Below, one piece after another: positions 409-63,263 of a stretch of 64,000 bases of DNA. Position numbers and translations under genes: made by a program. A model generated the notes under the pieces. The model ran no database searches and was not told the DNA's origin. It saw only the letters and a program-made list of their open reading frames with translations. Position 1 is the first letter of the stretch. The number at the start of each line of letters is the position of its first letter. The DNA comes from Candidatus Zixiibacteriota bacterium (lineage in GTDB: Bacteria > Zixibacteria > MSB-5A5 > RBG-16-43-9), in contig JAUYBY010000023.1 of the NCBI GenBank assembly GCA_030692925.1, positions 22,612 to 86,611 of the forward strand, written 5' to 3'.

Positions 409-592
409 ATAGAGGAAATAGGTTCCTGAAGAATTGAAAAGGATTGTCGGGCAGGGGTGCCCGACCTACGAGAGAATAGCACCTTTTATCACGTAGGCGG
501 GGCTCCCAGCCCCGTGAAACAAGTCTTTCTGAGTTTTGCTAAAACCTTTCAAAAGAGAGTGGAGTTAGTCTCCACCTTTTTAGTTTTAGGAT

Positions 593-2448: not shown

Positions 2449-2503
2449 TGTGGTTGCCCAATTTATTGGGCTTATTTTAAGCTCGATAAATCGAGCAACT
2501 ACA
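2449..2503. repeat. REP-like palindromic doublet (TGTGGTTG-CCCAATttATTGGG ... GCTCGATaaATCGAGC-AACTACA)
   Basis: Same unit family as at 15412-15466, 15653-15706, 25805-25945 and 26385-26520; conserved GTAG/CTAC ends. Confidence 0.7.
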
Positions 2504-2655
2504 GGCAGCCTCCAATTTCACGGGCTTCCAAAAAATGCAAAGGAAAAGTCGGGCAGGGTGCCTGACCTATGAAGAGTCATTATTTCACATCAGAGATACT
2601 ATTTGGAGCTATGGGGAACTGACACCTCGTCCTCACAGGAGTGAGGACGCTACAA

Positions 2656-9655: not shown

Positions 9656-9706
9656 TAACCTGTTTTAGTTATTTCCTTAAAACGACAAGTAGCACCTCCT
9701 ATAGGA

Positions 9707-9740
9707 AGACCACCCTGCTCCTGGGTGGTCTTTTCTTTTT
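9707..9740 (+). terminator. Intrinsic terminator (AGACCACCC-tgctcct-GGGTGGTCT + T-run)
   Basis: 9-bp GC stem followed by TTTTCTTTTTCTTTC. Confidence 0.6.
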
Positions 9741-15265: not shown

Positions 15266-15403
15266 CCTCCACAGGAGAAGAGTTTAAAAGATAAAGATTC
15301 ATTTCTTTTTATCGGCAGATTGGGCATTTTTATAATGATAGAATGAAGAGAAAAAAACTGTAGCGTTGCCTCTTTCAGGGAGAGGGAATAAAAACACAAA
15401 AAA

Positions 15404-15710
15404 TGGTAAGTTGTAGTTGCCCAATTTATTGGGCATGTTTTTAGCTCGATAAATCGAGCAACTACATCTGAGGCAATGTAAAGTGGAACAGACATCTTGT
15501 CTGTTCTTTGAAGTCAGATAGGGATGTCGGCCCATCATTAGGGGAGGGTCGTCCTCACGGGAGTGAGGACGCTATAGCTTTGAAGTCTGCCAGATGGGTT
15601 CGGGAATTCCAATTCCCGAACCAACCTCAAAAATCACAAACGGATGGTAAGTTGTAGTTGCCCAATTTATTGGGCATGTTTTTAGCTCGATAAATCGAGC
15701 AACTACCCGT
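15404..15710. repeat. Composite (BIME-like) REP cluster: two 75-bp direct copies of the TGTAGTTG-CCCAAT../GCTCGATAAATCGAGC-AACTACA doublet flanking three other hairpins
   Basis: Doublets at 15412-15466 and 15653-15706; hairpins GTCGTCCTCACgggaGTGAGGACGC and GTTCGGGAATTccAATTCCCGAAC lie between them. Confidence 0.75.
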
Positions 15711-24807: not shown

Positions 24808-25803
24808 TCAATTCAGGTTAAGTTTCTTCTTAACCAGCTCCACTGTGTTCTGGTCTTCTGCCTGTTCTAACCTTTTTAAAGCCTCATCTCTTTCGAGATA
24901 ACCTTCCCTTACCAGTTTGGCTAACTCGAAGGCATAGGGATGGAAACCGAACCTTTGCTTATGCACCAAATTAGCAAACGAGTTCAAAAGGCAGTTAGTC
25001 GAGTTCGAGTCGGTATCAACTGGCATATTCCAGCCGAGCTTTTCGATCTTTTTGAATATTTTCTTCTCATCGTATTCCAGAAAAGCTAAAGGGCTGATAT
25101 TATAAGGAAAATCCTCTTTTTGCTCGAAATGTTTCTCCTCTAAAAAATAAGGATTGATCTTTTCACCGGCGATCCTGAAAAGCGGCTCTTTGATGGCATT
25201 CTGCATCCCCTTCAGCATTGAGGGGTTGTTCTTGAAAATGGAGGCGGATATCGGTGCCTGACCCGGTGACCAGCCATAGGTTATAAAAGGTATCTTCTTT
25301 TCTAAAGCCAGTCGCAAAGTGGTGGATTTGACAATCCCCATACAGGAAGTGCAGATGGTGCTTGCCCGGTCTAAGGTTTTGCGGGAGAAGATATCTTCTT
25401 GGGTGCCGGTCAAAAATATTTTCTTTAAAAGGGTGAAATCCGGCTTGAAAAATATATGGTCTACTCCTAAATTTTCCACAACTTGACGGATATTCTTAAA
25501 AGCCTGTTCTGATAAAAAACCGTTGTCAAAGGTCAAAGCTAAGATTTTAAGGTCATATTCTTCTTTCAAGAGACTGAGGGCATAAGTGCTGTCTTTTCCC
25601 CCGGAATAAGCCATCAAAGCATCGTAGGAACTGGAGTTTTTGAATCTATCCAGAAGCTCCTGGAACTTCTGCAGGTATTTTACCTTCTCCTTTTCCAGAT
25701 ATTCTTTTCCCTTGAACTCCTGGCAGAAATTACACACCCCTTTTGAATCAAAACTTATGCCAGGAAAGGTCTCTGGTAGCACGCAGTTGGTACAGATTTT
25801 CAT
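24808..25803 (-). CDS. N-acetyl sugar amidotransferase (PP-loop ATPase of LPS/O-antigen clusters, WbuX-like)
   Basis: N-terminal CxxC...CxxC ribbon, SGGKDS PP-loop; 331 aa. Confidence 0.7.
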   Translation of the reverse strand: MKICTNCVLPETFPGISFDSKGVCNFCQEFKGKEYLEKEKVKYLQKFQELLDRFKNSSSYDALMAYSGGKDSTYALSLLKEEYDLKILALTFDNGFLSEQAFKNIRQVVENLGVDHIFFKPDFTLLKKIFLTGTQEDIFSRKTLDRASTICTSCMGIVKSTTLRLALEKKIPFITYGWSPGQAPISASIFKNNPSMLKGMQNAIKEPLFRIAGEKINPYFLEEKHFEQKEDFPYNISPLAFLEYDEKKIFKKIEKLGWNMPVDTDSNSTNCLLNSFANLVHKQRFGFHPYAFELAKLVREGYLERDEALKRLEQAEDQNTVELVKKKLNLN

Positions 25804-25804
25804 A

Positions 25805-26520
25805 GGTGTTTTTCAGTAGTCGCCCAATTCATTGAGCTTTTTTTATGCCTGATAAATCAGGCAACTACATACTCGATAGATCGAGCAACTACAGTTACAT
25901 ATTGTAGTTGCCCAATTCATTGGGCAATATTTTCTTCCAAACAATCCATAGACTATGATTCATAAAACTGACTGAATTTTATCTTCTCTTTCAACGGATT
26001 ATTTATAATATATTCCCTGATTTTAAGCAACGCTTTCTCGTTTCGAATTACATGTTCATAATAATTAGGTTGCCATAATCTTATTCCGGCTTCTTTACTG
26101 GTCAAAGACTTGAATCTTCTTACTATCTCGCCTAAACCGAGTTTAGATTCCTGCAATATAATAATCATATGTATATGTAAAGGTAATATAGAATAATAAT
26201 CAATATTAATGCCCTCGATTCCTTTTAACTCGTCTAAGGCAGTGCGAATTTCCCTGCTGAACTCTTCTAAATAAGGGCGTTGATAACTTGAACAAATGGT
26301 AACAAAATAGTAACCGTTTTGAGAGTAATCATAATGTTTTAATCTTATATTTTTTATCGACCTCATGATTTAACCCTTGCGGTATCCTACTTGTTGTGCT
26401 TTTTGCTCGATGAATCGAGCAACTACAGTCACATATTGTAGTTGCCCAATTCATTGGGCATCTTTTATACCTGATAAATCAGGCAACTACAGGCTCGATG
26501 AATCGAGCAACTACAATTCC
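25805..26520. mobile_element. RAYT (REP-associated tyrosine transposase) locus: IS200/IS605-like Y1 transposase gene flanked on both sides by REP arrays
   Basis: REP units on both flanks share CAACTACA-gtYacatat-TGTAGTTG inverted heads: left flank 25821-25926, right flank 26405-26515. Confidence 0.75.
25953..26366 (-). CDS. tnpA: IS200/IS605-family Y1 (HuH) transposase, RAYT type
   Basis: HuH motif LHIHMII and the C-terminal LWQPNYYEHVIRNE motif (catalytic Tyr); 137 aa. Confidence 0.8.
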   Translation of the reverse strand: MRSIKNIRLKHYDYSQNGYYFVTICSSYQRPYLEEFSREIRTALDELKGIEGINIDYYSILPLHIHMIIILQESKLGLGEIVRRFKSLTSKEAGIRLWQPNYYEHVIRNEKALLKIREYIINNPLKEKIKFSQFYES

Positions 26521-27486
26521 TCAGAGGAGATTCGGAGCGTTCTGGTTCAGATGAATCGAGGCTTTCCTTTTCTGGTCAAAATCCCGATAGGCTCTTATTA
26601 TCTGTTCCTCTGAAAGGTTTAATACCTGACTTACCTTTGAAAGAGGGATTTTGTTCTCCTGAGCATACAAGAGTAAGTCCAACAGGTCATAAGGCATACA
26701 GAAGAAAAACTCCTGATCTGATACTACTGCAGAGAAGGTGTCCGGGCTGGGAACTCGCTTGATTATCTCCTCCGGGATGTCCAGAAATTTAGCTAGCTGG
26801 TATACCTGAGTCTTATAAAGATGAGCAATCGGCTCCAGATCAACTCCTCCATCCCCAAATTTCACGTAAAAACCCTGAGCATATTCACTTAAATTAGTGG
26901 TGCCGATGACCATATAGTTATATTTTTCAGCATAATAATAAAGCTGGATCATCCGGCTTCTCTGTTTCATATCCGTTGCTGCCACAATCCCCAAAAGCCC
27001 TTCTTTGGAAAGGCGAAAACTTTTCTCCTCTCCTTTGGGACTGATCATCTTCAAGCTGAAATAATTAATCCGGTCCCTTTCTAATAAGTCCTGGGGAAGC
27101 CCAATTTTTATTTTATAGGAACTGTCATAAGCGGGGGAAATCTTTTTAATTACCTCGTCTCTCTTTTTATAACATCCCAGACTTTCCATGGCTTGGGTCA
27201 GGTCGACTTTTTCGGTTCTTATGCCCAGTTTCTTAGCTAAAAGCTCTCCATAGGTTAAGCTTATCGGATTCGATTCTTTTTCCGGCAAAAAGACACCTAA
27301 AACCTTATCCTTGCCCAAAGCCCTGACCGATAAAGCAGCAGTTAGAGCTGAGTCTATGCCTCCGCTTATTCCCACCACCGCACCCTCTCTTCTGAAATGC
27401 GTAAAAACCTGTTCTTTTATGAATTCACAAATCCTTTCGCATTCTTTCTCAGAATTTATATCCAGGATATTTTTGTGAAAGTCCAT
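26521..27486 (-). CDS. nadE: NH3-dependent NAD+ synthetase NadE
   Basis: PP-loop GISGGIDSAL, and VIGTTNLSEYAQGFYVKFGDGGVDLEPIAHLYKTQVYQLAKFL matches the NadE core. Confidence 0.75.
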   Translation of the reverse strand: MDFHKNILDINSEKECERICEFIKEQVFTHFRREGAVVGISGGIDSALTAALSVRALGKDKVLGVFLPEKESNPISLTYGELLAKKLGIRTEKVDLTQAMESLGCYKKRDEVIKKISPAYDSSYKIKIGLPQDLLERDRINYFSLKMISPKGEEKSFRLSKEGLLGIVAATDMKQRSRMIQLYYYAEKYNYMVIGTTNLSEYAQGFYVKFGDGGVDLEPIAHLYKTQVYQLAKFLDIPEEIIKRVPSPDTFSAVVSDQEFFFCMPYDLLDLLLYAQENKIPLSKVSQVLNLSEEQIIRAYRDFDQKRKASIHLNQNAPNLL

Positions 27487-30575: not shown

Positions 30576-30666
30576 CCTAAATTTCTCTTGACTTGGCCCT
30601 TAAATTATTACTAAATATAATTCCTGAATGTAGTTGCAACAGGGCGTCCAATTGGACACCCCTACG
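30576..30666 (+). repeat. 91-bp direct repeat, copy 1 (promoter-like TTGACT..TAAATA plus REPIN-like GTAG-palindrome-CTAC)
   Basis: About 92% identical to 31698-31788. The central palindrome GGCGTCCAATTGGACACC is inverted relative to copy 2. Confidence 0.8.
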
Positions 30667-31697: not shown

Positions 31698-31788
31698 CCT
31701 AAATTTCTCTTGACTTAGCCTTTAAATTATTGCTAAATATAATTCCTGAATATAGTTGCGACAGGGTGTCCAATTGGACGCCCCTACG
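31698..31788 (+). repeat. 91-bp direct repeat, copy 2, followed by two more REP units (31815-31868)
   Basis: See copy 1. The downstream units are GTTCGATgaATCGAAC-CCCTACG and TGTAGGGG-CTTGATttATCAAACC. Confidence 0.8.
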
Positions 31789-31886
31789 CGGGTTCTGAAT
31801 CTTAACCGGTCTGGGTTCGATGAATCGAACCCCTACGAATGAATGTAGGGGCTTGATTTATCAAACCCTGCAAAAGCGAAGGGATT

Positions 31887-35020: not shown

Positions 35021-35154
35021 AATCTTTTTCATTCTAAATTTACGGAGACAAGAAAATGCCTAAAGCAAAAAAGAAAAAAGGCGGTTGCAAAACCAAGAAG
35101 CCCTGCTAAGATTTAAAGACAAAAATAGTTTAGAGAAAAAGGGCTTATTTTTTA

Positions 35155-35191
35155 AAAATCAGTCCCGCTTAAAGCGGGACTGATTTTTTTT
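35155..35191 (+). terminator. Intrinsic terminator (AATCAGTCCCGC-ttaa-GCGGGACTGATT + TTTTTTTT)
   Basis: 12-bp perfect stem followed by a T8 run. Confidence 0.8.
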
Positions 35192-46977: not shown

Positions 46978-47039
46978 TAAAATTGACGAGCTTCTGAAAA
47001 ATCTTCAAAATCCTAAAAGATAGTAGAATAAGAAATGTT

Positions 47040-47320
47040 TGAAAGGTCTATTTCGCAGGGCTGTTCCGCCTGAAGCATTGTATGTGTGAGTTCTTCGTAT
47101 TCCCCTCCCTTGATGGCCGTTAAAAGCTTTACGGCTCGTAGAGGAGGGGTAAGGGGAGGGTGAATTGTCTTTTTTTGTCTTCCCCCTCACCCTCTCCCAC
47201 AAGCCGATAAAAGCATTACGGTGGCTGCGCCCTTCGCTCCTCGTAGAGGGAAGAGGGAAACTATTTTGTGAGTCCGGCACCTGTGCCCGACTTTTCCCTC
47301 TTTAATTCTTGAGAGATGTC
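47040..47320. repeat. Cluster of GC-rich hairpin repeats (two about 60-nt units CCCCTCCC..GCCGtTAAAAGCtTTACGG..CTCGTAGAGG..GGGGAGGG, plus GTCCGGCACCTGTGCCCGAC)
   Basis: ORF 47005..47280 lies entirely within these repeats and is probably spurious. Confidence 0.6.
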
Positions 47321-50512: not shown

Positions 50513-52246
50513 TTAGAACTCTTTATATTTATTGGTGATTGGTAATCTGCGATCTTTTCCAAAGGCTCTGGCAGTTATCTTTATGCCAGGGGGCGCCTGT
50601 CTTCTTTTATATTCGCTTCTGTCCACCATCTGCATAACTTTGATTATCGTGTCCTCATCAAAACCTAAATCCTTTATCTCTTTGAACCCCTTGTCTTCCT
50701 CCACATAATATTTTAAAATCGGGTCTAAAACCGGGTAAGGAGGAAGAGTGTCAGAATCCTTTTGCCCGGGCTTAAGCTCGGCAGTAGGCTCCCTTTTCAA
50801 AATATCTTCAGGGATAAGCTCTTTTTTCTCTAAAAAATTTCTGTATCCGGCTAACTTATAAACTAAAGTCTTGGGAATATCTTTTAACACCACGAAGCCG
50901 CCAACCATGTCTCCATACAGAGTAGAATATCCTGCAGCTAATTCGCTTTTATTTCCGGTAGTCAGTACCAGCCAGCCGAATTTGTTAGAAAGAGCCATTA
51001 GAAGATTCCCTCTTATCCTTGCCTGGAGGTTTTCCTCAGTTACGTCCGGCTTTCTACCTTTAAATTCTGAAGACAAAGTCAAGATATAGGTCTCCAGAAT
51101 TTTCTGGATAGAAAGATCGATAAACTTCATCCCTAAATTCCGGGCTAATTTTTTAGCATCCTCGAAACTTCTTTTTGAGGTAAACTCAGATGGCATAAAA
51201 ACTGAGATCACATTTTCACTGCCCAGGGCATCTCTGGCAATGACTGCTACTAACGCGGAATCTATCCCTCCGCTTAAACCCAGAACCGCCTTCCTAAATC
51301 CGTTTTTACTCAGATAATCTTTTGTTCCCAGGACCAATGCCTGATAGACTTCAGCCAGAGGTGACAAGGGTTCTGGATTTATCCTTTTTATCTTTGGTTT
51401 TCTTCTCTTAAGAATTCTTTTTGTGACGATTATTCTGTTGACGATTTCAGATTTGAGTTTCTCTTTTTCCGTTCTCCACTTTGGGTCATGCAACCTTGCC
51501 CTGAAAACCTCATCCAAGTCCAGGTCTGCTATTATGAAATCCTCTTCAAACTGTTTGCCACGGTATAAAGTTTTACCTTCAGGGTCAAAGATCATCCCCA
51601 TTCCATCAAAGACCAGCTCATCCTGTCCGCCAACCAGGTTATTATACAAAATGAAAACCCGGTTATCGCTCGCCCGGGTGGAAAGCATCTTCTCTCTTTC
51701 TTTCCACTTATCCATATGATAGGGTGAAGCGTTGATATTCACTATCAGTTCAGCTTCGCCGATTAAAGCCTGAGCTTTTGCCGGACCTTCTGGATACCAG
51801 ATATCCTCGCAGACATTAACCCCAAAGACAAAATCGCCTATCTGATAAACAGAGAATTTCTCCCCTGGCTGGAAATAGCGATATTCGTCAAACACCCCAT
51901 AATTGGGCAGGTTGCTTTTATAATAAACGTCCACCAGTTTCCTATTATGAATTACGGCTGCCGCATTGTATACCTCTCCGTTTTTATCCACAAATCCGAC
52001 AATCACAGTCAGACCGCCAGTCTTCGGGATTATCTTCTTTAAAGCTTTGATATTGTCTTCAATGAATTGTGGTTTGAGCAGCAAGTCCTCAGGCGGATAG
52101 CCGGTAATGGAAAGCTCCGGAAAGCATACCAGCTCCACCCCCATCTTCTTGGCTTTGTCCAGATACTGGATTATCTTTCTGGTATTCCCCTCTAAATCCC
52201 CTACGGTGCAGTTTATCTGCGCCATCCCTACCCTTAAAGAACGCAT
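50513..52246 (-). CDS. nadE: Glutamine-dependent NAD+ synthetase (nitrilase + NAD-synthase domains)
   Basis: CN-hydrolase domain (CFPELSITGY, E-K-C triad) plus PP-loop GLSGGIDSALVA. Confidence 0.9.
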   Translation of the reverse strand: MRSLRVGMAQINCTVGDLEGNTRKIIQYLDKAKKMGVELVCFPELSITGYPPEDLLLKPQFIEDNIKALKKIIPKTGGLTVIVGFVDKNGEVYNAAAVIHNRKLVDVYYKSNLPNYGVFDEYRYFQPGEKFSVYQIGDFVFGVNVCEDIWYPEGPAKAQALIGEAELIVNINASPYHMDKWKEREKMLSTRASDNRVFILYNNLVGGQDELVFDGMGMIFDPEGKTLYRGKQFEEDFIIADLDLDEVFRARLHDPKWRTEKEKLKSEIVNRIIVTKRILKRRKPKIKRINPEPLSPLAEVYQALVLGTKDYLSKNGFRKAVLGLSGGIDSALVAVIARDALGSENVISVFMPSEFTSKRSFEDAKKLARNLGMKFIDLSIQKILETYILTLSSEFKGRKPDVTEENLQARIRGNLLMALSNKFGWLVLTTGNKSELAAGYSTLYGDMVGGFVVLKDIPKTLVYKLAGYRNFLEKKELIPEDILKREPTAELKPGQKDSDTLPPYPVLDPILKYYVEEDKGFKEIKDLGFDEDTIIKVMQMVDRSEYKRRQAPPGIKITARAFGKDRRLPITNKYKEF

Positions 52247-52340: not shown

Positions 52341-52612
52341 TTGTAGGGGAGGGGCTTGTCCCCTCCCGTCTCACATACCCACGGGCGACCACGAGGGTCG
52401 CCCCTACGTTCTCCCTCTTCTTGCAAAATACAAGGGTAAGGGTGAGGTTCTAAGGTAAAGTCGAGTCTTATAAAGGAGGCGCCGATATTTTTAATGGGTG
52501 GGGACAGCTTGTAGGGACAGGGCTTGTCCCTGTCCGATTGAAAAACAACGGACGGCCACACGGTTCGATAAACTCACCGTCCTGAGAAGTGTAGAAGGAA
52601 GGGTCGCGCTAC
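52341..52612. repeat. Cluster of GC-rich GTAG-headed palindromes (TGTAGGG-GAGGGGcttgtCCCCTCCC; GGGCGACCacgaGGGTCGCCC-CTACG; TGTAGGGACAGGGcttgtCCCTGTCC)
   Basis: ORFs 52270..52458 and 52325..52561 lie inside the repeats and are probably spurious. Confidence 0.65.
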
Positions 52613-52618
52613 GATTTA

Positions 52619-53398
52619 TCAAACTGAATCTTTGGGTTCCTCGACTTGCGGATTCAAAGGTGCTTCATATTCCTCTAAGGTTAAGAATCCGTATTTTAGC
52701 ATCCGGTTTAAGATTATCTTTCTTCTTCTTTCAAATCTTCGGGCATCTGAGGTAGGCGGGTATTTCCGAGGGAAAGGTAAAGAGGTAGCCATCCTTATCG
52801 CCTCATCTGGCGTAAGGTCTGATGATGATTTTCCAAAATAGTATCTGGAAGCCGCCTCGCAGCCGTAGATTCCGTCTCCCCATTCGACTAAATTCAAATA
52901 AAGTTCAAAGATTCTTCTTTTGCTGAGTGCCTTTTCCAGACGGAAGGCGATTAAGATTTCCTTCAATTTTCTAAAAGGATTCTTGGAAGGTGAAAGGTAG
53001 AGGTTTTTAGCTAATTGCTGGGTAATGGTGGATGCGCCCCTGGAGAATCCTTTCTTTTTCCAGTCGATCTTTAAGGATTCTTTCATCTCCTGCAGATCTA
53101 TTCCGCTGTGAGTGAAGAAATTTATGTCCTCACTTACTAAAATAGCTTTTTTTAGATACAGAGAAACCTGGCTATAAGGCACCCAGATGCGATATTCCCT
53201 GGGTTTTTTGCCTTCTCTCTCATATTCTTTGTTCCTTATCTGGATTAAGGAAGTGGTCTCGGGATTTTCTTTTTGAAGATATTTTACATCTGGCAAGGTT
53301 AGATACTCCATAAGAAATATAAGAACAAAAATTAAAAGCAAAGCTGAAAAGATATATCGCCATTTGAATTTTTTTGGTTTTGGAAAGCTCATTATCAA
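52619..53398 (-). CDS. mtgA: Monofunctional biosynthetic peptidoglycan transglycosylase (GT51)
   Basis: N-terminal TM; EDINFFTHSGID, GASTITQQLAKNLYLS and RKxxE motifs. Confidence 0.85.
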   Translation of the reverse strand: MIMSFPKPKKFKWRYIFSALLLIFVLIFLMEYLTLPDVKYLQKENPETTSLIQIRNKEYEREGKKPREYRIWVPYSQVSLYLKKAILVSEDINFFTHSGIDLQEMKESLKIDWKKKGFSRGASTITQQLAKNLYLSPSKNPFRKLKEILIAFRLEKALSKRRIFELYLNLVEWGDGIYGCEAASRYYFGKSSSDLTPDEAIRMATSLPFPRKYPPTSDARRFERRRKIILNRMLKYGFLTLEEYEAPLNPQVEEPKDSV

Positions 53399-53402
53399 CG
53401 CT

Positions 53403-53427
53403 GGGCTTGATAAATCAAGCCCCTACA
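53403..53427. repeat. Single REP unit GGGCTTGATAAATCAAGCCC-CTACA
   Basis: Same palindrome-plus-CTACA design as the other REPs. Confidence 0.6.
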
Positions 53428-53548
53428 AATGTGGTCGTCGGATTAAAGCTCTTTGTTGGTGTCCTCACCAACAAAGATACTCCATTGGTCAGGAGACCAA
53501 CGGAGAGCAAGTGGGGCGCATTGGAATACGCCCCCACCTGAACGGTAA

Positions 53549-54808
53549 TTATCTGCGAGCGTTAGGTCCTCCATATAATCCGGGATCGCTGATGCTTCCA
53601 TCCGGGTCAGTTAAAAGAGGATTACCTTTATCGATCAAAGGTGAATTTGACTTTAGGTGAAAATCTGTCTGGCTTTCAAAAAGAGGGTCAACAGATAGGT
53701 TTCCGTTTTGCTCTGTCTGGTCTGGTATATCTTTGTAATTGCCCGCGCTGTTGTTCCAGACGTCATTGTAGGTTACTGGAAAGTTTGGATTTATATCAGT
53801 TGCCCAGACTCCAACGCAGGGGCAGACCCATTCTTTTCTCCAGCCGTTTTCAGTGATTATGTTGTTCGTGCAGACCCCTTTGCATTCTGCGCTCCAGACT
53901 GCAAATCCGCAGTTACCGTTTCTGGTGATGATATTATTCGAAGCATCCATATAAGAGGTTCCAGTAGCAATAATTCCCCAGCCCAGATTTTCGTGCACCA
54001 GATTGTTTCTCACCACTGCCCTTGAGTTGCCGAAAGTTCCGATTCCCTTCCAGTAGCCGGAGATCTCGTTGCGGTACAGTGTCGCAGTTGCATCCCAGGT
54101 TATCCCGATTCCGGCACCCCTGCCGTCGCAGATGACGTTATCCGCGATATAGGCAGTTGCTCCCCGATATAATGCCACACCATCCCAGCCGTTGTTCTGA
54201 ATCCGGTTATTCAAAATAGATATTTCCGAATTCTCTCTTCCGAATACGCCGCCTATCCCGACCACAACATTCTCGAGTCGATGAATGTTATCTGATATCT
54301 CCACGTCTTCAACTGTAACAGTGCTGAATTTAGTAACAATCCCAGCATCGGTGGCATTCCCATCAACGTCTCTTTTTCCTCCGGTTATCTTAAGCCTGGT
54401 GATAAGGGAATTTCGGCTATTTTCAAATAAAACTCCATATCCAGCTTTAGTGACCAGAGTGGTTGCATCTTTTCCACTGCCGATTATGCTCAGCCCTTTA
54501 TTCTCGACCAAAAAGCCCCGGGTGGCATTCACTCTGGTCTTATGCTCCTGGCAATTACCGCACAATTCCTCGATGTATTCTTGCGGTTTTGCCTCATAAG
54601 TTCCCTGAAAGATAAAAATTGTATCCCCATCTTTTGCCTGATCAAATGCATTCTGCAAATCCCTGAGCGGCTCCTGCTTTGACCCGACTCCGACTTTCTT
54701 ATCTTTAAGGTCATCCACAAACCAGATTCTATTGATCTGATCAGGTGAATTTGAGTTTAGGATTACAAGTAAAATTAAAATTATGAATAATTGAAACAGA
54801 TTTCTCAT
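53549..54808 (-). CDS. Secreted right-handed parallel beta-helix repeat protein (pectate-lyase/NosD-like fold)
   Basis: Signal peptide; many N/G-rich about 22-aa PbH1-like repeats (NNxIxxN, GxG). Confidence 0.6.
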   Translation of the reverse strand: MRNLFQLFIILILLVILNSNSPDQINRIWFVDDLKDKKVGVGSKQEPLRDLQNAFDQAKDGDTIFIFQGTYEAKPQEYIEELCGNCQEHKTRVNATRGFLVENKGLSIIGSGKDATTLVTKAGYGVLFENSRNSLITRLKITGGKRDVDGNATDAGIVTKFSTVTVEDVEISDNIHRLENVVVGIGGVFGRENSEISILNNRIQNNGWDGVALYRGATAYIADNVICDGRGAGIGITWDATATLYRNEISGYWKGIGTFGNSRAVVRNNLVHENLGWGIIATGTSYMDASNNIITRNGNCGFAVWSAECKGVCTNNIITENGWRKEWVCPCVGVWATDINPNFPVTYNDVWNNSAGNYKDIPDQTEQNGNLSVDPLFESQTDFHLKSNSPLIDKGNPLLTDPDGSISDPGLYGGPNARR

Positions 54809-57382: not shown

Positions 57383-57721
57383 TTTTAATATGTATATATA
57401 CATATTAAAATAGTACATCCATTATACACGATAACATATTAAGCTATTATAGAACAATGAATTAGAATGCTATTATCATAAAATATGGAGCATATTATGT
57501 AGTATATATACTACATAATATGCATAAGATATTTGCGTGTAAAAAAAAATTAAGCAAAAGTTGAAGATTTCTCTTGACAATTTGACTATAATGTATATAT
57601 ACATTATAGTCTTTATCTAATACGGAATCAACTGATCTACTAAGGTGTTAAAACTTAATAACTTAGTCCGGATAACTTAACATAAATGATGGCTTTTATT
57701 ATTGTATATATACAATAATAA
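57383..57721. promoter_or_regulatory. Array of four perfect 26-32-bp palindromes sharing the core GTATATATAC, at 57383-57410, 57491-57522, 57584-57611 and 57696-57721
   Basis: Centres are 110, 91 and 111 bp apart. Palindrome 3 forms the 17-nt spacer of a TTGACT-17-TATAGT promoter (57582-57610), and palindrome 4 lies 20 nt before the AbiEi-like start. Confidence 0.7.
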
Positions 57722-57741
57722 GAAACTTTTACTCCTAATTA

Positions 57742-58628
57742 TGCCACGTATTAAGAAAGAAGATATCTTAAAAATCGCTAAGAACGATATAATAGAATTA
57801 CTTGATAATCTACCTTCTAAAATCCTGAAATATTCTGATCTCGAGAACATTCTATTAATAAACAGAAAAAATTGGCGTGTTACTACTACTACCACCGTCA
57901 ATGAATTCATTTCTTTTCTATTAGACCAAACAAAACTTAAGGAAGCAAAATTTAATTTTCCTTATCGTCCTGAACTAAGGTATATCTGGGGTGAAGTATC
58001 TAATTACGAATTAATTATGTCATTGAGGCCTGACTCCTATTTTACACACTATACTGCTATGTATTTGCATGAAATTACAGAGCAAATTCCAAATACCTTT
58101 TACTTAAATTATGAGCAATCTCCCAAGCGGAAGCATAAAGAGAACTTGGAACAAGATCGAATCGATTCTGCCTTCAAACGTCCAGTTAGGTCATCGAAAA
58201 ACATTGCATTCTACAACAATTTTAAAATATGCCTGCTGAATGGTATGTATACCGGCAAGCTGGGAGTAGTTGAAATTCTTGGGTTACAACGAGAGAAAAT
58301 TCGAGTCACAAATATAGAGAGAACACTTATAGATATTACTGTTAGGCCTGAGTACTCTGGAGGTGTTTTTGAGGTTTTAAAGGCTTTTCAGTTTGCCCAT
58401 GATAACGTATCGATAAACAAGCTGACCGCCATGTTTAAAAAACTGGATTATACTTATCCTTATCACCAAGCTATTGGATTCTATCTTGAGAAGGCAGGCG
58501 TTTATAATCAATCCCAAGTAGATTTACTATGCAAGTTTGATTTTGAGTTCGACTTTTATCTTACTCACCAAATGAAAGAAACCGATTATTCCAAAAAGTG
58601 GCGACTATACTACCCCAAGGGCCTCTAA
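57742..58628 (+). CDS. AbiEi-family (type IV TA / abortive-infection antitoxin-like) transcriptional regulator
   Basis: Start taken at MPRIKKEDIL, the internal Met of ORF 57702..58628. SYFTHYTAMYLHEITEQIP resembles the AbiEi_4 motif (S.ESAL..HGL..Q). The AT content is far higher than in neighbouring genes. Confidence 0.5.
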
Positions 58629-59486: not shown

Positions 59487-59573
59487 AGGTTATCCTTTTG
59501 ATTGCTTTTTCTTCAGACCTGAAAGGAGTATCACGGATTCTACTCGGGAGATTAAAAATAACATTCAAAAAAC

Positions 59574-59956
59574 TGGAGGCGGTGGGAATCGAACCCACGT
59601 CCGAAGATAAGAACTAAAGGACTTCTACAGGCTTAGCTTAGTCTTTTTTCCTTCCCGCTTTTGGCAGGAGGGACTTTCGCTCCAGGAAAGACCGACAAGC
59701 AGGTCTAACCCAGAACTATCCCGGTTTTGTTTCGCCCTCTTCCCCCAGGAGATAGAAGAAGGCTATCCTGTTTTTCTCGACGCCTTAGCCCAAACCAACA
59801 GGCAGGCTCAGGTAAGACGAGCTACCTTTTATTAGGCAGCCAATGCATACGAGTATTCGTTTGCATTTAGATTTGTTCCCAATGGATTAACGAGGTTACT
59901 GGGTACCTCGGCCTGCTTTCCTTTACCCTTGATCCCCGTCGAAACCGATCGCCCCC
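59574..59956 (-). ncRNA. ssrA: tmRNA (ssrA), tag peptide (A)ANEYSYALAA
   Basis: 5' end GGGGGCGAUCGGUUUCGACGGGGAUCAAGGG and 3' end GGACGUGGGUUCGAUUCCCACCGCCUCCA (tRNA-Ala-like T-arm and acceptor). Tag ORF GCAAACGAAUACUCGUAUGCAUUGGCUGCCUAAUAA. CCA is not encoded. Confidence 0.9.
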
Positions 59957-60037
59957 AAGAAAGTGGCTTAAGTCCTAATAAAATATACGTATAAATATGA
60001 GAAATTCAACAGAAATTTTGGGTAACCGAGAAAAAGG

Positions 60038-60065
60038 TTGACAAAAATATAGGCAATTGTAAATT
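60038..60065 (+). promoter_or_regulatory. Putative promoter TTGACA-16-TAAATT for the M16 peptidase operon
   Basis: Sequence ggTTGACAaaaatataggcaattgTAAATTgg. Confidence 0.4.
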
Positions 60066-60125
60066 GGATACCTTAGTGTAAGGTGAAAACAAGTTTATAA
60101 CTGTACATCTAATCAAGGAGAGGAT

Positions 60126-61466
60126 ATGAGCAAAAAACAAAGTTTCAAGGTAAATATGTTTTCTTCTCTGCTCCTGGTTTTAATTCCCCTTTTTTCTCTT
60201 CTGGCTCAAGAACTCAAACTGGACATAAAGAAAAATGTCCTGGATAACGGGCTGACCATTTTGACCTGCGAGGATAAATCCGCACCCACGGTTTCCTATA
60301 TGACCTTTATAAATGCTGGCTCCCGTGAGGAAAAGCCAGGAATTACTGGATTAGCTCACATCTTCGAGCATATGATGTTCCGGGGAACCAAAGAATACCC
60401 GGACTTTGATAAGGCGATAACCTCATTCGGAGCGCAGACCAATGCCTCAACTGGTGAGGATTACACCTCTTATTTTGTGAATGTGAAGAAGGATTATCTG
60501 GAAAAGATAATCCCGATCGAGGCAGATAGGGTGAGAAATTTAGTCTTTACTAATGAGGCTTTCCGAATGGAGATGGGTCCGGTTAAGGAAGAAAGGAGAA
60601 GGGGTGTGGTGGATGATCCGGATGGTTTTATCTGGGACGAGCTGGTCCAGACCGCTTACCAGGTGCATCCTTATCACCATCCGGTAATAGGTTTTGAAGA
60701 GGACCTGGAGAAAAATATCCAGGTTCAGGATGGACTGGATTTCAAGAGGAATTTCTATTCTCCTGGATATACCACCATCGTCTTAACCGGCAATTTCGAT
60801 ACTCCGAAGGCATTGGAGTTGATAAAAAAGTATTACGGGGACTGGCAAAAGACCCCTCCGCCTGATCTCAACATACCGGCTGAGCCAAAGCAGACCAAGG
60901 AGAGGGTGAAAAATTACGTGTGGAAGGATTCTGAGATCTCTCCCAAGCTTTTAATCGCTTTTCACGGGCCCAATTTTGAGATAAAAGATGACGATTTTTG
61001 CGCGCTGGAGCTTGCAGCCCGGATTCTGTTTATGTCCTCAGGTAGGCTCACTAAAAAGCTCTACAATGACCTGCAACTGGTTGAATATATCTCCGGCGGA
61101 ATGGGGGATAGAAAGGACCCGGGGCTTTTCGAGATCAGCACGTCTTTAAAAAGGGGAAAATCGATAGATGAGGCGAAACCCCTGATCTTAGAGGAGCTGG
61201 AAAAACTGAAAAATGAGCCGGTCTCGGAAAGAGAGCTGGAAAAAGCCAAAAACTCCGTAAAGGCTGAGATGATCTACCGGATGGATAACCCGCTCTCGGT
61301 TGCTTATACAATCGGGCATTTTCAGACAGCAGGTGGCGATTACAATCTGCTTTTCGAGATTCAGAAGAAATACTCGGAAGTGACTCCGGAGATGATTCAA
61401 CAGGTGGCAAGGAAATATTTCAATCCTGAGAACAGGACTGTGCTTACCTTATTACCCAAGAAGTAG
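60126..61466 (+). CDS. M16-family zinc peptidase (active subunit, HxxEH)
   Basis: Signal peptide and HIFEHMMFRGT inverted zinc-binding motif. Confidence 0.85.
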   Translation: MSKKQSFKVNMFSSLLLVLIPLFSLLAQELKLDIKKNVLDNGLTILTCEDKSAPTVSYMTFINAGSREEKPGITGLAHIFEHMMFRGTKEYPDFDKAITSFGAQTNASTGEDYTSYFVNVKKDYLEKIIPIEADRVRNLVFTNEAFRMEMGPVKEERRRGVVDDPDGFIWDELVQTAYQVHPYHHPVIGFEEDLEKNIQVQDGLDFKRNFYSPGYTTIVLTGNFDTPKALELIKKYYGDWQKTPPPDLNIPAEPKQTKERVKNYVWKDSEISPKLLIAFHGPNFEIKDDDFCALELAARILFMSSGRLTKKLYNDLQLVEYISGGMGDRKDPGLFEISTSLKRGKSIDEAKPLILEELEKLKNEPVSERELEKAKNSVKAEMIYRMDNPLSVAYTIGHFQTAGGDYNLLFEIQKKYSEVTPEMIQQVARKYFNPENRTVLTLLPKK

Positions 61467-61500
61467 CTTAACTTTCTCAAAAAATAGATGGAGGAAAAAG

Positions 61501-63000
61501 ATGAGAAATACAGGTTTGAAAATCATACTCTTAAGTTTGATCTGTCTTTTACTGGTTTTTTCAGTTGATTGCAGCAAAACCCAGAAGCTCAAGATCATTC
61601 AGGTGAAGAAGACCGAGATACCGGTGGTCAATTTCCGGGTGATGATTTTCTCCGGCTCGGCTGATGACCAGAAAGGGAAAGAAGGTTTAGCTTATTTTGC
61701 TTCTTCTATGTTGAAAAAAGGTACCCAGTCTTATTCCCGGGAACAGTTAGAAGAGCTTTTGGATTTCCTGAGTGCCAGGATAGACATAAGCGTGGACAAA
61801 CAGGTTATTGTGGTGAGCGGAACGACCCTGAAGGAAAATTTAGACAAATTTTACCCGCTCTTCTCTGAGGTCATTTTGAAACCCTCTTTTCCACAGGAGG
61901 AAATAGAAAAACAGAAGAAAGAGCAGGAAGATGGGGTCAATATGCTTCTGCAGGATGATGGGGAATTAGTAAAGGAGTGCCTGCAGGATTATATCTACAA
62001 AGACCATCCTTACGGACACCCGGTGGTGGGAGGTCTATCCTCCATAAAAAGTTTCACCAGGCAGGACGTTCAGGATTTCTATAACACTCATTTTGTCAAG
62101 GATAATCTGGTCATAGGCTTAGCCGGGGATATTGATGAAAACTTAGTGGAAAAGGTAAGAAAAGACTTCTCCGCTTTAAAAGAAGGGAAAGTGGTTCATC
62201 CGGAGGGAACTGTTCAACCGCTCAAGGGGAGGAAACTTCTTTTAGTTGAAAAAGAAGGCAGAGGTCAAACCCAGTTTTGTTTTGGTCATCCGGTTAGTTT
62301 CACGCGAAAAGATGAAAAAATGTTTTTCCCTTTGTATGTGGCAAATACCTACTTTGGCAAGCACAGGGAATCTTTCGGGGTTTTGTTTCAGACTGTCCGA
62401 ACCGAGCACGGGCTTAGCTACGGAGCTTACAGCTATATCGAGTATTTCAGGCAGGCAGGCTGGTCCAATTTAGCCTCGCCCAATATTCCGCGCAGGGAAC
62501 AGTACTTCAGCATCTGGACTTATCCTAAAAGCATCAATGGCAAATTCACTATGAAACTGGTCTTGAAAGATTTGACTGATTTAGTTGAAAACGGAGTTCC
62601 CAAAGAGGAGTTGGAAAGATACAAGAATTTCGAGATCAACCATTTCCCTTTTGAGATTCAGACACCCCAGAGGAAATTAGGGCTCCTTTTGGATGAGGAG
62701 TTTTATGGTAATTATGGTTTTGTGGACAACTTCGAAAAAAACGTTAAAGGGGTAAGCTCAGACCAGGTTAATTCAGACCTTAAGAAGTATATTTTTCCGG
62801 ATGACATTGCGATAGTGGCAATAGTCAGCAATGCCGATGATTTCAAAAAAGAGCTTTTCTCAGATCAAACTGTGATAGAATACCCCTCAGGCGTAGATGG
62901 TGCATCTTTAAAAGAAGGGGACGATAAGGTCAAAGCTTTTGATCTTAAAATCAAGCCCGAGGATGTATCTGTGGTTAAAGTTTCAGAGCTTTTTAAATAG
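61501..63000 (+). CDS. M16-family peptidase, non-catalytic partner subunit
   Basis: M16 fold without HxxEH; paired with the upstream gene. Confidence 0.75.
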   Translation: MRNTGLKIILLSLICLLLVFSVDCSKTQKLKIIQVKKTEIPVVNFRVMIFSGSADDQKGKEGLAYFASSMLKKGTQSYSREQLEELLDFLSARIDISVDKQVIVVSGTTLKENLDKFYPLFSEVILKPSFPQEEIEKQKKEQEDGVNMLLQDDGELVKECLQDYIYKDHPYGHPVVGGLSSIKSFTRQDVQDFYNTHFVKDNLVIGLAGDIDENLVEKVRKDFSALKEGKVVHPEGTVQPLKGRKLLLVEKEGRGQTQFCFGHPVSFTRKDEKMFFPLYVANTYFGKHRESFGVLFQTVRTEHGLSYGAYSYIEYFRQAGWSNLASPNIPRREQYFSIWTYPKSINGKFTMKLVLKDLTDLVENGVPKEELERYKNFEINHFPFEIQTPQRKLGLLLDEEFYGNYGFVDNFEKNVKGVSSDQVNSDLKKYIFPDDIAIVAIVSNADDFKKELFSDQTVIEYPSGVDGASLKEGDDKVKAFDLKIKPEDVSVVKVSELFK

Positions 63001-63010
63001 ACTTCTATGT

Positions 63011-63040
63011 TGGGATAGGGGTTGTATTCCTATCCCTTTT
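63011..63040 (+). terminator. Intrinsic terminator (GGGATAGG-ggttgtatt-CCTATCCC + TTTTCTCTT)
   Basis: 8-bp stem with a U-rich tail right after the M16 operon. Confidence 0.7.
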
Positions 63041-63211
63041 CTCTTACGGGCAGCCCCGCATATTGCGGGACGCCTATGGGTTCAAAGGGTGTTGATTTTG
63101 CGTCCTAGAAACGGATCCGTAGGATAGGTCGGGCACCCTTGCTCGTCTAATTTCTCGAAGAAATCTCTTGACAAAAAGAGGTAGGAAATAGAATAGTATA
63201 GGAAATAAACT

Positions 63212-63263
63212 CGCGTAGCAGAGGTTTTAAACCTCTGCCGAGCCCTAAAGGCTCGGCTACGCG
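63212..63263 (+). repeat. REPIN-like element: 8-bp outer stem CGCGTAGC/GCTACGCG enclosing two hairpins (CAGAGGttttaaaCCTCTG; GCCGAGCCctaaaGGCTCGGC), followed by GTTTTC
   Basis: GTAG/CTAC heads as in the other REPs. It sits between two copies of cTTGACAA-N15-gaaaTAGAATrag (63168-63197 and 63271-63300). Confidence 0.55.

Follow-up and report, generated by a model that had tools for sequence, protein, structure and literature searches.

GTAG-headed hairpins and the RAYT gene of the window

A stretch of 64,000 nucleotides from a Candidatus Zixiibacteriota genome (assembly GCA_030692925.1, contig JAUYBY010000023.1; hereafter the window) was analysed for palindromes headed by the tetranucleotide GTAG and for the gene of a REP-associated Y1 tyrosine transposase (RAYT), REP standing for repetitive extragenic palindrome. 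The GC content of the window is approximately 42%. A previous examination of the letters alone (the sequence-only reading) had proposed that at least five families of such palindromes are REPs whose GTAG is recognised by a RAYT, and the sequences it quoted are all present, at or near the positions it gave. One GC-rich block of these elements (52341-52612) is intergenic and lies in a 372-bp spacer between two minus-strand genes, which encode a glutamine-dependent NAD synthetase (50513-52246) and a monofunctional transglycosylase (52619-53398). The coordinates of the elements and of the RAYT gene are listed in Table 1.

Every maximal perfect hairpin with a stem of at least 7 bp and a loop of 2-8 nt was listed for the 64-kb window. 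GTAG was located 0-3 nt 5' of the outermost stem pair in 19 cases, compared with 1.24 expected from the GTAG frequency (15-fold), and ranked first among the 256 tetranucleotides at this position; the words ranking just below it (TGTA, TAGT and CGTA) overlap the same motif. In the wrong-orientation control, CTAC was found 5' of the stem only twice, and 30 windows simulated with a first-order Markov model contained 0-2 GTAG-headed hairpins each. A looser count, in which GTAG just 5' or CTAC just 3' of the stem was accepted, gave 22 of 78 distinct hairpins, with two in the reverse arrangement. When distinct stems were counted once, at least 12 were headed by GTAG against approximately one expected. 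Two matches within genes (4124 and 35931) correspond to the number expected by chance. By this enrichment test chance and base composition were rejected as the source of the GTAG-headed hairpins; the association exceeds clearly what composition predicts, and the observation made from the sequence alone therefore stands.

A scan tolerating one mismatch or one G-T pair yielded 25 elements, and hand curation with decayed heads included raised this number to 29. The REP units are 24-26 nt long and comprise at least eight stem families with GTAG flush against the stem. The position of GTAG relative to the stem, which the sequence-only reading had wished to see checked, was conserved: in each family the head directly abuts the full stem (offset 0), without a spacer. 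All but one of the curated elements (28/29) are extragenic, within the 13.4% of the window that lies outside any open reading frame (ORF) of at least 90 aa. The remaining one overlaps only a 98-aa ORF (53364-53660), which was taken as spurious because it overlaps a Pfam-supported gene (53549-54808). When the window was compared with Rfam at gathering thresholds, only the tmRNA was returned, so that the repeats match no curated RNA family.

As had been noticed before, only one RAYT is encoded in the 64 kb. A RAYT profile run against all ORFs of at least 50 aa matched this gene alone, and it is the sole Y1 transposase gene of the window. Its product reached 29.7 bits with the Pfam model Y1_Tnp (cut-off 23) and 71.5 bits with the NCBIfam model REP_Tyr_transpos, which is below the cut-off of 80, compared with 24.5 bits for IS200; on the latter comparison IS200/IS605 ends were rejected as the identity of the hairpins. 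Close homologues carry the JGI (Joint Genome Institute) name RayT. The best match among solved structures was Escherichia coli TnpA_REP (4er8, E = 1e-8), with the HUH motif and the tyrosine aligned. Y119 of the window RAYT aligns with residue 115 of that protein, which we take to be its catalytic tyrosine. The gene is flanked by four REPs on its 3' side and four on its 5' side, all of which are of the GTAG-TTGC type, with no other type among them. With TTGC elements on both sides, the TTGC family is the cognate family of the window RAYT. A Y1 transposase, probably of the RAYT type, with GTAG hairpins on both flanks, and homologues arranged likewise, bear out the interpretation of the palindromes as REPs with a RAYT-recognised GTAG. 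Together, the data support the assignment of the GTAG-headed palindromes to the GTAG-tagged superfamily of REPs; most of them occur in inverted dimers (REPINs, REP doublets forming hairpins, or BIMEs, bacterial interspersed mosaic elements).

Three groups of elements are central to the question of which RAYT serves which family. Class 1 consists of GTAG, a 9-bp stem and a 2-nt loop (24 nt). Its TTGC type, with the stems TTGCCCAAT, TTGCTCGAT and TTGCCTGAT and the loop TT or TC, is present in about 17 copies. The GGG type has the stems GGGCTTGAT and GGGTTCGAT and occurs at 53403, 31813 and 31845. A degenerate 22-nt pattern covering both types had 17 matches at up to two mismatches in the 64 kb against 0.01 expected. 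Class 2 consists of GTAG, an 8-bp G-rich stem and a 5-nt loop CTYGT (25 nt), with sites at 52343 (+), 52383 (-) and 52511 (+) and a probable half-element at 52588-52612. The GC-rich block is made up of two head-to-head class-2 dimers, the second of which is decayed. Resemblance to the arm 52383-52407 weakly suggests that the half-element is probably the remnant of a class-2 REP. Both hairpins of the intact dimer were present in the minimum free energy and in the centroid DNA folds.

Within the TTGC family, the REPs of the 3' cluster all read GTAG-TTGC-NNNAT-TY-ATNNN-GCA. In the flanks of the RAYT gene GTAG-TTGC, the AT closing pairs and a loop starting with T are invariant, and the inner stem occurs in three variants (CCA, TCG and CTG). 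The sequence-only reading had listed TGTAGTTGCCCAAT.. and ..ATCGAGCAACTACA as separate families. They are in fact the two inverted arms of one dimer: GTAG-TTGC, the head plus the outer stem, is common to both, and the inner stem positions differ by compensated changes. The 63-nt REPIN unit reads ATGGTAAGTTGTAG...CAACTAC, and the inner stems of the two arms of the doublet differ systematically (CCCAAT vs CTCGAT).

REP types, RAYT clades and the number of RAYTs

For a survey of class 1, one genome per GTDB species was scanned with the pattern GTAGKKGCYYGATTYATCRRGC, which gave at least 120 loci; approximately 9 chance matches in 596 Gb were estimated under the assumption of uniform base composition. 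The contig of the window itself is not among the loci listed. Among the loci listed, matches were found in metagenome-assembled genomes (MAGs) labelled Poribacteria, Omnitrophota, Aminicenantes, Dehalococcoidia/Chloroflexi, Nitrospirae, WOR-3, Elusimicrobia, Planctomycetes, Zixibacteria, Doudnabacteria and others. The record titles of these REP-carrying MAGs show roughly 20 higher-taxon labels, with Doudnabacteria of the candidate phyla radiation (CPR) among them. Many of the listed loci hold several matches, their GTAG hairpins are again predominantly of the 9 bp + 2 nt geometry, and several different GTAG stems are present in most of the genomes sampled. Among the loci listed, 81 GTDB genomes were sampled for the two types of class 1: 44 contained TTG only, 31 GGG only and 5 both, as expected if the types are independent systems. 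In the Poribacteria CAXXCS01 loci L037, L077 and L094 and other Poribacteria loci we observed at least five GTAG-headed families in the loci sampled, namely GCCCGAT-tc, GGAACAACG-at (17 copies in three loci), GCGGGGCA-tct, GTGCGGTT-tcc and GTCGAGAT-tcat.

Six RAYTs flanked by TTGC elements were found elsewhere, which are 51-70% identical to that of the window. The GTDB scan contributed L024 (Poribacteria), L078 (Anaerolineae) and L099 (Doudnabacteria). The RAYTs at L245 and L249 (Zixibacteria MAGs) and at L247 (a metagenome contig) are 64-70% identical to the window RAYT (L247, 70%), and head-to-head dimers of the stems TTGCTCGAT/TTGCCCAAT are located on both sides of these genes; unrelated GTAG families also occur near the RAYT at the three loci. 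The position of the three genes is conserved: each is located within an acyl-CoA carboxylase / methylmalonyl-CoA cluster, with a gene for a carboxyltransferase on one side and one for a biotin carboxylase on the other. The window RAYT is located between NAD-synthase-like and QueC-like genes, beside glycosyltransferases (region 24808-27486).

GGG elements accompany another set of RAYTs. At L041 (Omnitrophota) a RAYT 41% identical to that of the window has GTAG-GGGTTCGAT upstream, and the GGGCTTGAT/GGGTTCGAT tail-to-tail dimer before the gene reproduces the stems and the arrangement of window positions 31813-31868. Only four short proteins were recovered when homologues of the partial L041 RAYT were searched for. 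They yielded the loci L242 and L243; at both, GTAG-GGG REPs lie just upstream of L041-like RAYTs.

Class 2 was searched for in metagenomes with the pattern GTAGGGNNNGGGCTTGTCCCNNNCC, and the following figures apply to the matches listed. Of 259 GTAG hairpins in the class-2 loci, 176 had the 8 bp + 5 nt geometry. The window class-2 stems GGGAGGGG, GGACAGGG and GGGCGACC all recur in metagenome contigs, and the stem of the REP at 52511 occurs seven times in metagenome loci. RAYT-like genes were present in three loci (L149, L153 and L161). At L153, a class-2 REP with the loop cttgt lies approximately 20 bp upstream of the RAYT, and a downstream REP ending in CTAC has the loop acgag, which is the loop pairing of the window dimer 52343/52383. 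At L149, class-2 REPs are located on both sides of the RAYT. At L161 (15-614, -), class-2 REPs were observed in frame within the RAYT coding sequence, to which they add peptide segments, among them GAGTSPSQTDVGAGLVPAQ and GKGAGTSPART, and a tRNA-like sequence lies just upstream of the gene.

The RAYTs next to the three types differ accordingly in sequence. Identity is 47-84% within the TTGC-flanked group. The GGG-flanked RAYTs (L041, L242 and L243) share 58-68% with each other and 36-46% with the TTGC clade, and the class-2-flanked RAYTs 23-36% with each other, 23-33% with the TTGC clade and 28-33% with the window RAYT.

From these comparisons of sequences we favour the reading that the window carries at least three separate REP systems, class 1 TTGC, class 1 GGG and class 2. 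Class 1 GGG would belong to a related but distinct RAYT clade and class 2 to a distant RAYT type, both outside the window. The 446/493, 2628/15550, 30642/31764 and 63215 families would be further GTAG REPs, probably reliant on RAYTs outside the window as well. The sequence-only reading had left it as a question whether one RAYT services several families. That further RAYTs are encoded elsewhere in the genome, or have been lost, seems probable to us and is favoured over one RAYT serving all, because the REP type tracks the RAYT clade across independent loci and because TTG and GGG mostly segregate between genomes. By analogy with other RAYTs, each REP would fold into a hairpin in single-stranded DNA; the RAYT, as an HUH/Y1 enzyme, would recognise this hairpin together with the unpaired 5' GTAG and would cleave nearby, thereby copying the element around the chromosome.

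Several points weigh against further RAYTs. No second RAYT is present in the 64 kb analysed, which are part of a contig of 87.8 kb. The pairing of GGG elements with their RAYTs is based on three loci, two of which are short contigs, with truncated or frameshifted genes, and that of class 2 on two to three loci only. The class-2 RAYTs found are from other lineages, with none in Zixibacteria, and that of L153 is 100% identical to a Blastocatellia protein. Furthermore, the TTG/GGG genome counts were obtained from few 8-kb loci per genome that were picked for containing a match, and a minority REP type can therefore be missed in a given genome.

Alternatively, the single window RAYT might read GTAG plus any stable hairpin and mobilise every GTAG-headed family. 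This would fit the head at offset 0 common to all families and the RAYT's own flanks, which already accommodate the inner-stem variants CCA, TCG and CTG. Moreover, changes in stem sequence only mildly affect cleavage by a RAYT with perfect-palindrome REPs (PMC8266576), and Zixibacteria-type loci of 12-18 kb likewise show several GTAG families with one RAYT. On the other hand, the eight REPs flanking the window RAYT are all TTGC, GGG and class 2 flank divergent RAYTs of their own elsewhere, and few genomes have TTG together with GGG (5, against 44 and 31 with one type only). Class 2 also departs from class 1 in geometry (8 bp + CTYGT vs 9 bp + TY), and a specific loop base is essential in the systems tested. 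We thus regard service of all families by one RAYT as very unlikely. A second possibility, which overlaps with the favoured reading of further or lost RAYTs, is that the non-TTGC elements are orphans or fossils, spread by RAYTs since lost and now inert or used by the host as hairpins. Decayed copies among them (ATAG heads at 2548 and 15550, the half-element at 52588, a mismatch at 31845), the presence of only one to three copies per non-TTGC family in 64 kb and the loss of RAYT loci, which has been described (PMC3733652) and is reported for many E. coli strains, would all be compatible with such relics. However, perfect elements exist too, namely the class-2 dimer 52343-52407 and the REPs at 53403 and 31813, and TTGC copies beside the window RAYT (25816 and 25869) are partly decayed too, so that decay alone does not separate fossil from live REPs; we consider this possibility quite unlikely.

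The view that the hairpins are transcription terminators or protein-binding palindromes, with GTAG as a composition effect, is refuted and retains practically no probability. The elements do lie between genes, mostly with same-strand neighbours, and terminator-like hairpins without GTAG exist in the window (e.g. 9706-9732 and 35154-35188). Yet the GTAG signal is 15-fold enriched, ranks 1/256 and is orientation-specific (19-22 vs 2), the elements are arranged as inverted dimers, and RAYT genes of many genomes have these same sequences at their flanks. REP stems are not followed by a T-run, and on this ground intrinsic terminators were rejected.

Relation to known REP/RAYT systems

The GTAG superfamily has been described as 24 families with 6-13-bp stems, TY loops, compensated sub-families and both dimer types (Di Nocera, De Gregorio and Rocco 2013, BMC Genomics 14:522; PMC3733652). 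According to the same paper, GTAG or CGTC repeats are reported in more than 80 species of 8 phyla, and several species host multiple GTAG families, each with a repeat-specific RAYT locus (REPtron). The elements of the window resemble this superfamily in the unpaired GTAG, a short loop that is often TY, the intergenic location and a RAYT flanked by its own family; they differ in their host, here a Zixibacteria MAG. The existence of several GTAG families per genome with their own RAYTs is thus already described (PMC3733652), and the idea is not new. New here are probably the host and the family members of an already described superfamily. A literature search combining RAYT with Zixibacteria, Poribacteria, Omnitrophica and Aminicenantes returned no relevant paper.

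The REPtrons of Stenotrophomonas maltophilia and Marinomonas (Corneloup et al. 2021, PMC8266576) are similar to that of the window in their REPs of approximately 23-25 nt with a perfect 8-9-bp stem and a 2-5-nt loop, and in a small RAYT with an HUH motif and a catalytic tyrosine. In contrast to these systems, the window RAYT is shorter (137 aa) and the loops have 2 nt (TY), not 3 nt. The enzymes of E. coli, S. maltophilia and Marinomonas are known to bind and cleave single-stranded REPs in a manner that depends on GTAG, and with short perfect-palindrome REPs cleavage needs GTAG, an intact stem and one loop base, whereas the sequence of the stem matters less (PMC8266576).

In the description of Bertels and co-workers, it is the REPIN that replicates, and the RAYT is a domesticated gene present in single copy. 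Like the Pseudomonas REPIN-RAYT systems (Bertels and Rainey 2011, PMC3116915; Bertels et al. 2017, PMC5581495), the window has an inverted REP doublet as the mobile unit and a RAYT flanked by REPINs, and several REPIN populations, each having a RAYT of its own, may be present side by side. Differences are found in the doublet, the arms of which have unequal inner stems in the window (CCCAAT vs CTCGAT), and in the location of the RAYT outside the syntenic position of three related loci (L245, L247 and L249). These unequal arms are presumably more like the Y and Z REPs of E. coli BIMEs. With the E. coli TnpA_REP system (4er8; Messing et al. 2012, PMC3479197; Ton-Hoang et al. 2012, PMC3333891) the window shares GTAG 5' of the hairpin. 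The REPs of E. coli differ from those of the window in being longer and in forming imperfect, bulged palindromes. In the E. coli enzyme GTAG is contacted by a C-terminal extension of approximately 20 residues (PMC8266576), which the window RAYT lacks. IS200/IS605 TnpA belongs to the same Y1/HUH fold family (Pfam Y1_Tnp) and likewise recognises hairpins on single-stranded DNA; the window RAYT, however, is flanked by REP arrays and not by one left and one right end. No tnpB was noticed beside it, the Pfam check being confined to the ORFs 24808-25803 and 26521-27486.

For annotation, these results mean that approximately 30 intergenic hairpins of the window are REPs and not terminators, small genes or unknown RNA motifs; by extension, the same would hold for many hairpins in Zixibacteria and other uncultured phyla. 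REPs can also create spurious ORFs and break assemblies. The cross-genome data amount to a small natural experiment on RAYT specificity, in which TTGC, GGG and class 2 each track a different clade. The same 24-nt REP is kept beside RAYTs that have diverged to approximately 50% identity across phyla. The tracking of REP and RAYT could guide biochemistry of how the substrate is read; it extends the known picture and overturns nothing.

Some further-reaching ideas are, held jointly, unlikely. The three base pairs of the stem foot next to GTAG (TTG, GGG etc.) might form, together with the loop type, a code assigning REP families to RAYT paralogues. Separately, near-identical 22-25-nt REPs and their RAYTs across phyla might reflect inter-phylum spread of REPtrons or an extreme long-term constraint on the REP. 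A stronger variant would be a genome with one RAYT that cross-mobilises several GTAG families. The cross-phylum near-identity of REPs and the apparent stem-foot/loop code are the only mildly novel aspects, with modest sampling.

Further REP families and neighbouring features

Table 1. Positions of the RAYT gene and of GTAG-headed elements in the window
Feature	Position	Strand	Description
RAYT (REP-associated Y1 tyrosine transposase)	25953-26366	-	137 aa; HUH motif H64-I-H66; putative catalytic Y119 (REYIINNP)
REP cluster 3' of RAYT, four class-1 TTGC	25816-25927		25816-25839 (+, degenerate), 25845-25868 (-), 25869-25892 (-, degenerate), 25904-25927 (+)
REP cluster 5' of RAYT, four class-1 TTGC	26403-26514		26403-26426 (-), 26438-26461 (+), 26467-26490 (-), 26491-26514 (-)
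REPIN, head-to-head, GTAG outside	15403-15465		GTAG-TTGCCCAATttATTGGGCA, 8-nt spacer, GCTCGATaaATCGAGCAA-CTAC
REPIN copy 2	15644-15706		63 nt, 100% identical to 15403-15465
REPIN copy 3, worn	2450-2502		Left head degenerate (GTGG)
Class-1 GGG tail-to-tail dimer, heads inside	31813-31868		GGGTTCGATgaATCGAACCC-CTAC, spacer gaatgaat, GTAG-GGGCTTGATttATCAAaCCC
Class-1 GGG single REP	53403-53426	-	GTAG-GGGCTTGATttATCAAGCCC
Class-2 head-to-head dimer	52343-52407		GTAG-GGGAGGGGcttgtCCCCTCCC 52343-52367 (+), 15-nt spacer, GGGCGACCacgagGGTCGCCC-CTAC 52383-52407 (-)
Class-2 REP	52511-52535	+	GTAG-GGACAGGGcttgtCCCTGTCC
Class-2 remnant, putative	52588-52612	-	Head and one arm, GTAG-CGCGACCC; no complementary arm
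REP, GGGYGTCCA family	30642-30665	-	GTAG-GGGTGTCCAatTGGACGCCC; 9-bp stem incl. one G-T pair, 2-nt loop
REP, GGGYGTCCA family, copy 2	31764-31787	-	GTAG-GGGCGTCCAatTGGACACCC; body flipped relative to head
REP	446-469	-	GTAG-GTCGGGCAccccTGCCCGAC; tail-to-tail pair with 493-514
REP	493-514	+	GTAG-GCGGGGCTcccAGCCCCG, drawn as GTAG-G-CGGGGCTcccAGCCCCG
Degenerate copy of 446 family	2548-2570	-	ATAG-GTCAGGCAcccTGCCCGAC
REP	2628-2653	-	GTAG-CGTCCTCACtcctGTGAGGACG
REP, copy 2 of 2628 family	15550-15575	-	Head ATAG
Head-to-head dimer, two different abutting hairpins	63215-63260		CGCGTAG-CAGAGGTTttaAACCTCTG(C) + (G)CCGAGCCctaaaGGCTCGG-CTACGCG

Several families extend the list of the sequence-only reading, namely the 446 (GTCGGGCAccccTGCCCGAC), 493 (GCGGGGCTcccAGCCCCG) and 2628/15550 (CGTCCTCACtcctGTGAGGACG) families and the GGGYGTCCA family, in which GTAG is followed by GGGYGTCCA, the loop AT and the arm TGGACRCCC (30642 and 31764) and which has the geometry of class 1. 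In the two copies of the latter (GGGYGTCCAATTGGACRCCC family; 30642-30665 vs 31764-31787) the single asymmetric pair is opposite relative to GTAG (T-G vs C-A), as if the near-palindromic body had been turned around relative to the head. The stem and loop of the REP at 493-514 (GCGGGGCT-ccc) recur in the metagenome locus L247. No copy of the 2628/15550 or the 446 family turned up when the 241 fetched loci were searched for the exact patterns. The element at 63212 that had been described as REPIN-like proved to be the head-to-head dimer 63215-63260. The head-to-head arrangement was also found at 2450, 15403, 15644 and 52343, and tail-to-tail dimers at 446/493 and 31813/31845.

The CTCGTAGAGG units had been counted among the GTAG-plus-palindrome families. 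They are a real two-copy direct repeat at 47135 and 47240, the 10-mer occurring twice against 0.08 expected; GTAG, however, lies between a C-rich and a G-rich arm. They were excluded from the REP set because GTAG is not 5' of a palindrome. Within 47095-47265, each of the two units was observed to consist of a C-rich arm, a small hairpin (GGCCGT..ACGGC), CTCGTAGAG and a G-rich arm, and a 91-aa ORF over the repeats (47005-47280, -) is probably spurious. Of the at least five GTAG-headed families claimed from the sequence alone, several are real and more exist, but the first two are one family and the CTCGTAGAGG units do not follow the design.

Four perfect palindromes of 26-34 bp, centred on TGTATATATACA and spaced approximately 100 bp apart, were found at 57383-57721. 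They are intergenic, upstream of the ORF 57702-58628 (+), with TTTTAATATGTATatATACATATTAAAA and GCATATTATGTAGTATatATACTACATAATATGC as examples. None of these palindromes has a flanking GTAG head with a hairpin behind it, so that they are not REPs; they may represent an operator array or an origin-like region. The tmRNA gene is full-length and located at 59571-59956 (-; Rfam RF00023, 201 bits). A 3.2-kb contig of an independent short-read assembly of the same organism (L001, Logan SRR13727536) corresponds to window positions 59901-63130. It ends at 63130 inside a degenerate GTAG element (63119-63147), approximately 85 nt before the REP dimer at 63215, and this break is consistent with repeats breaking assemblies.

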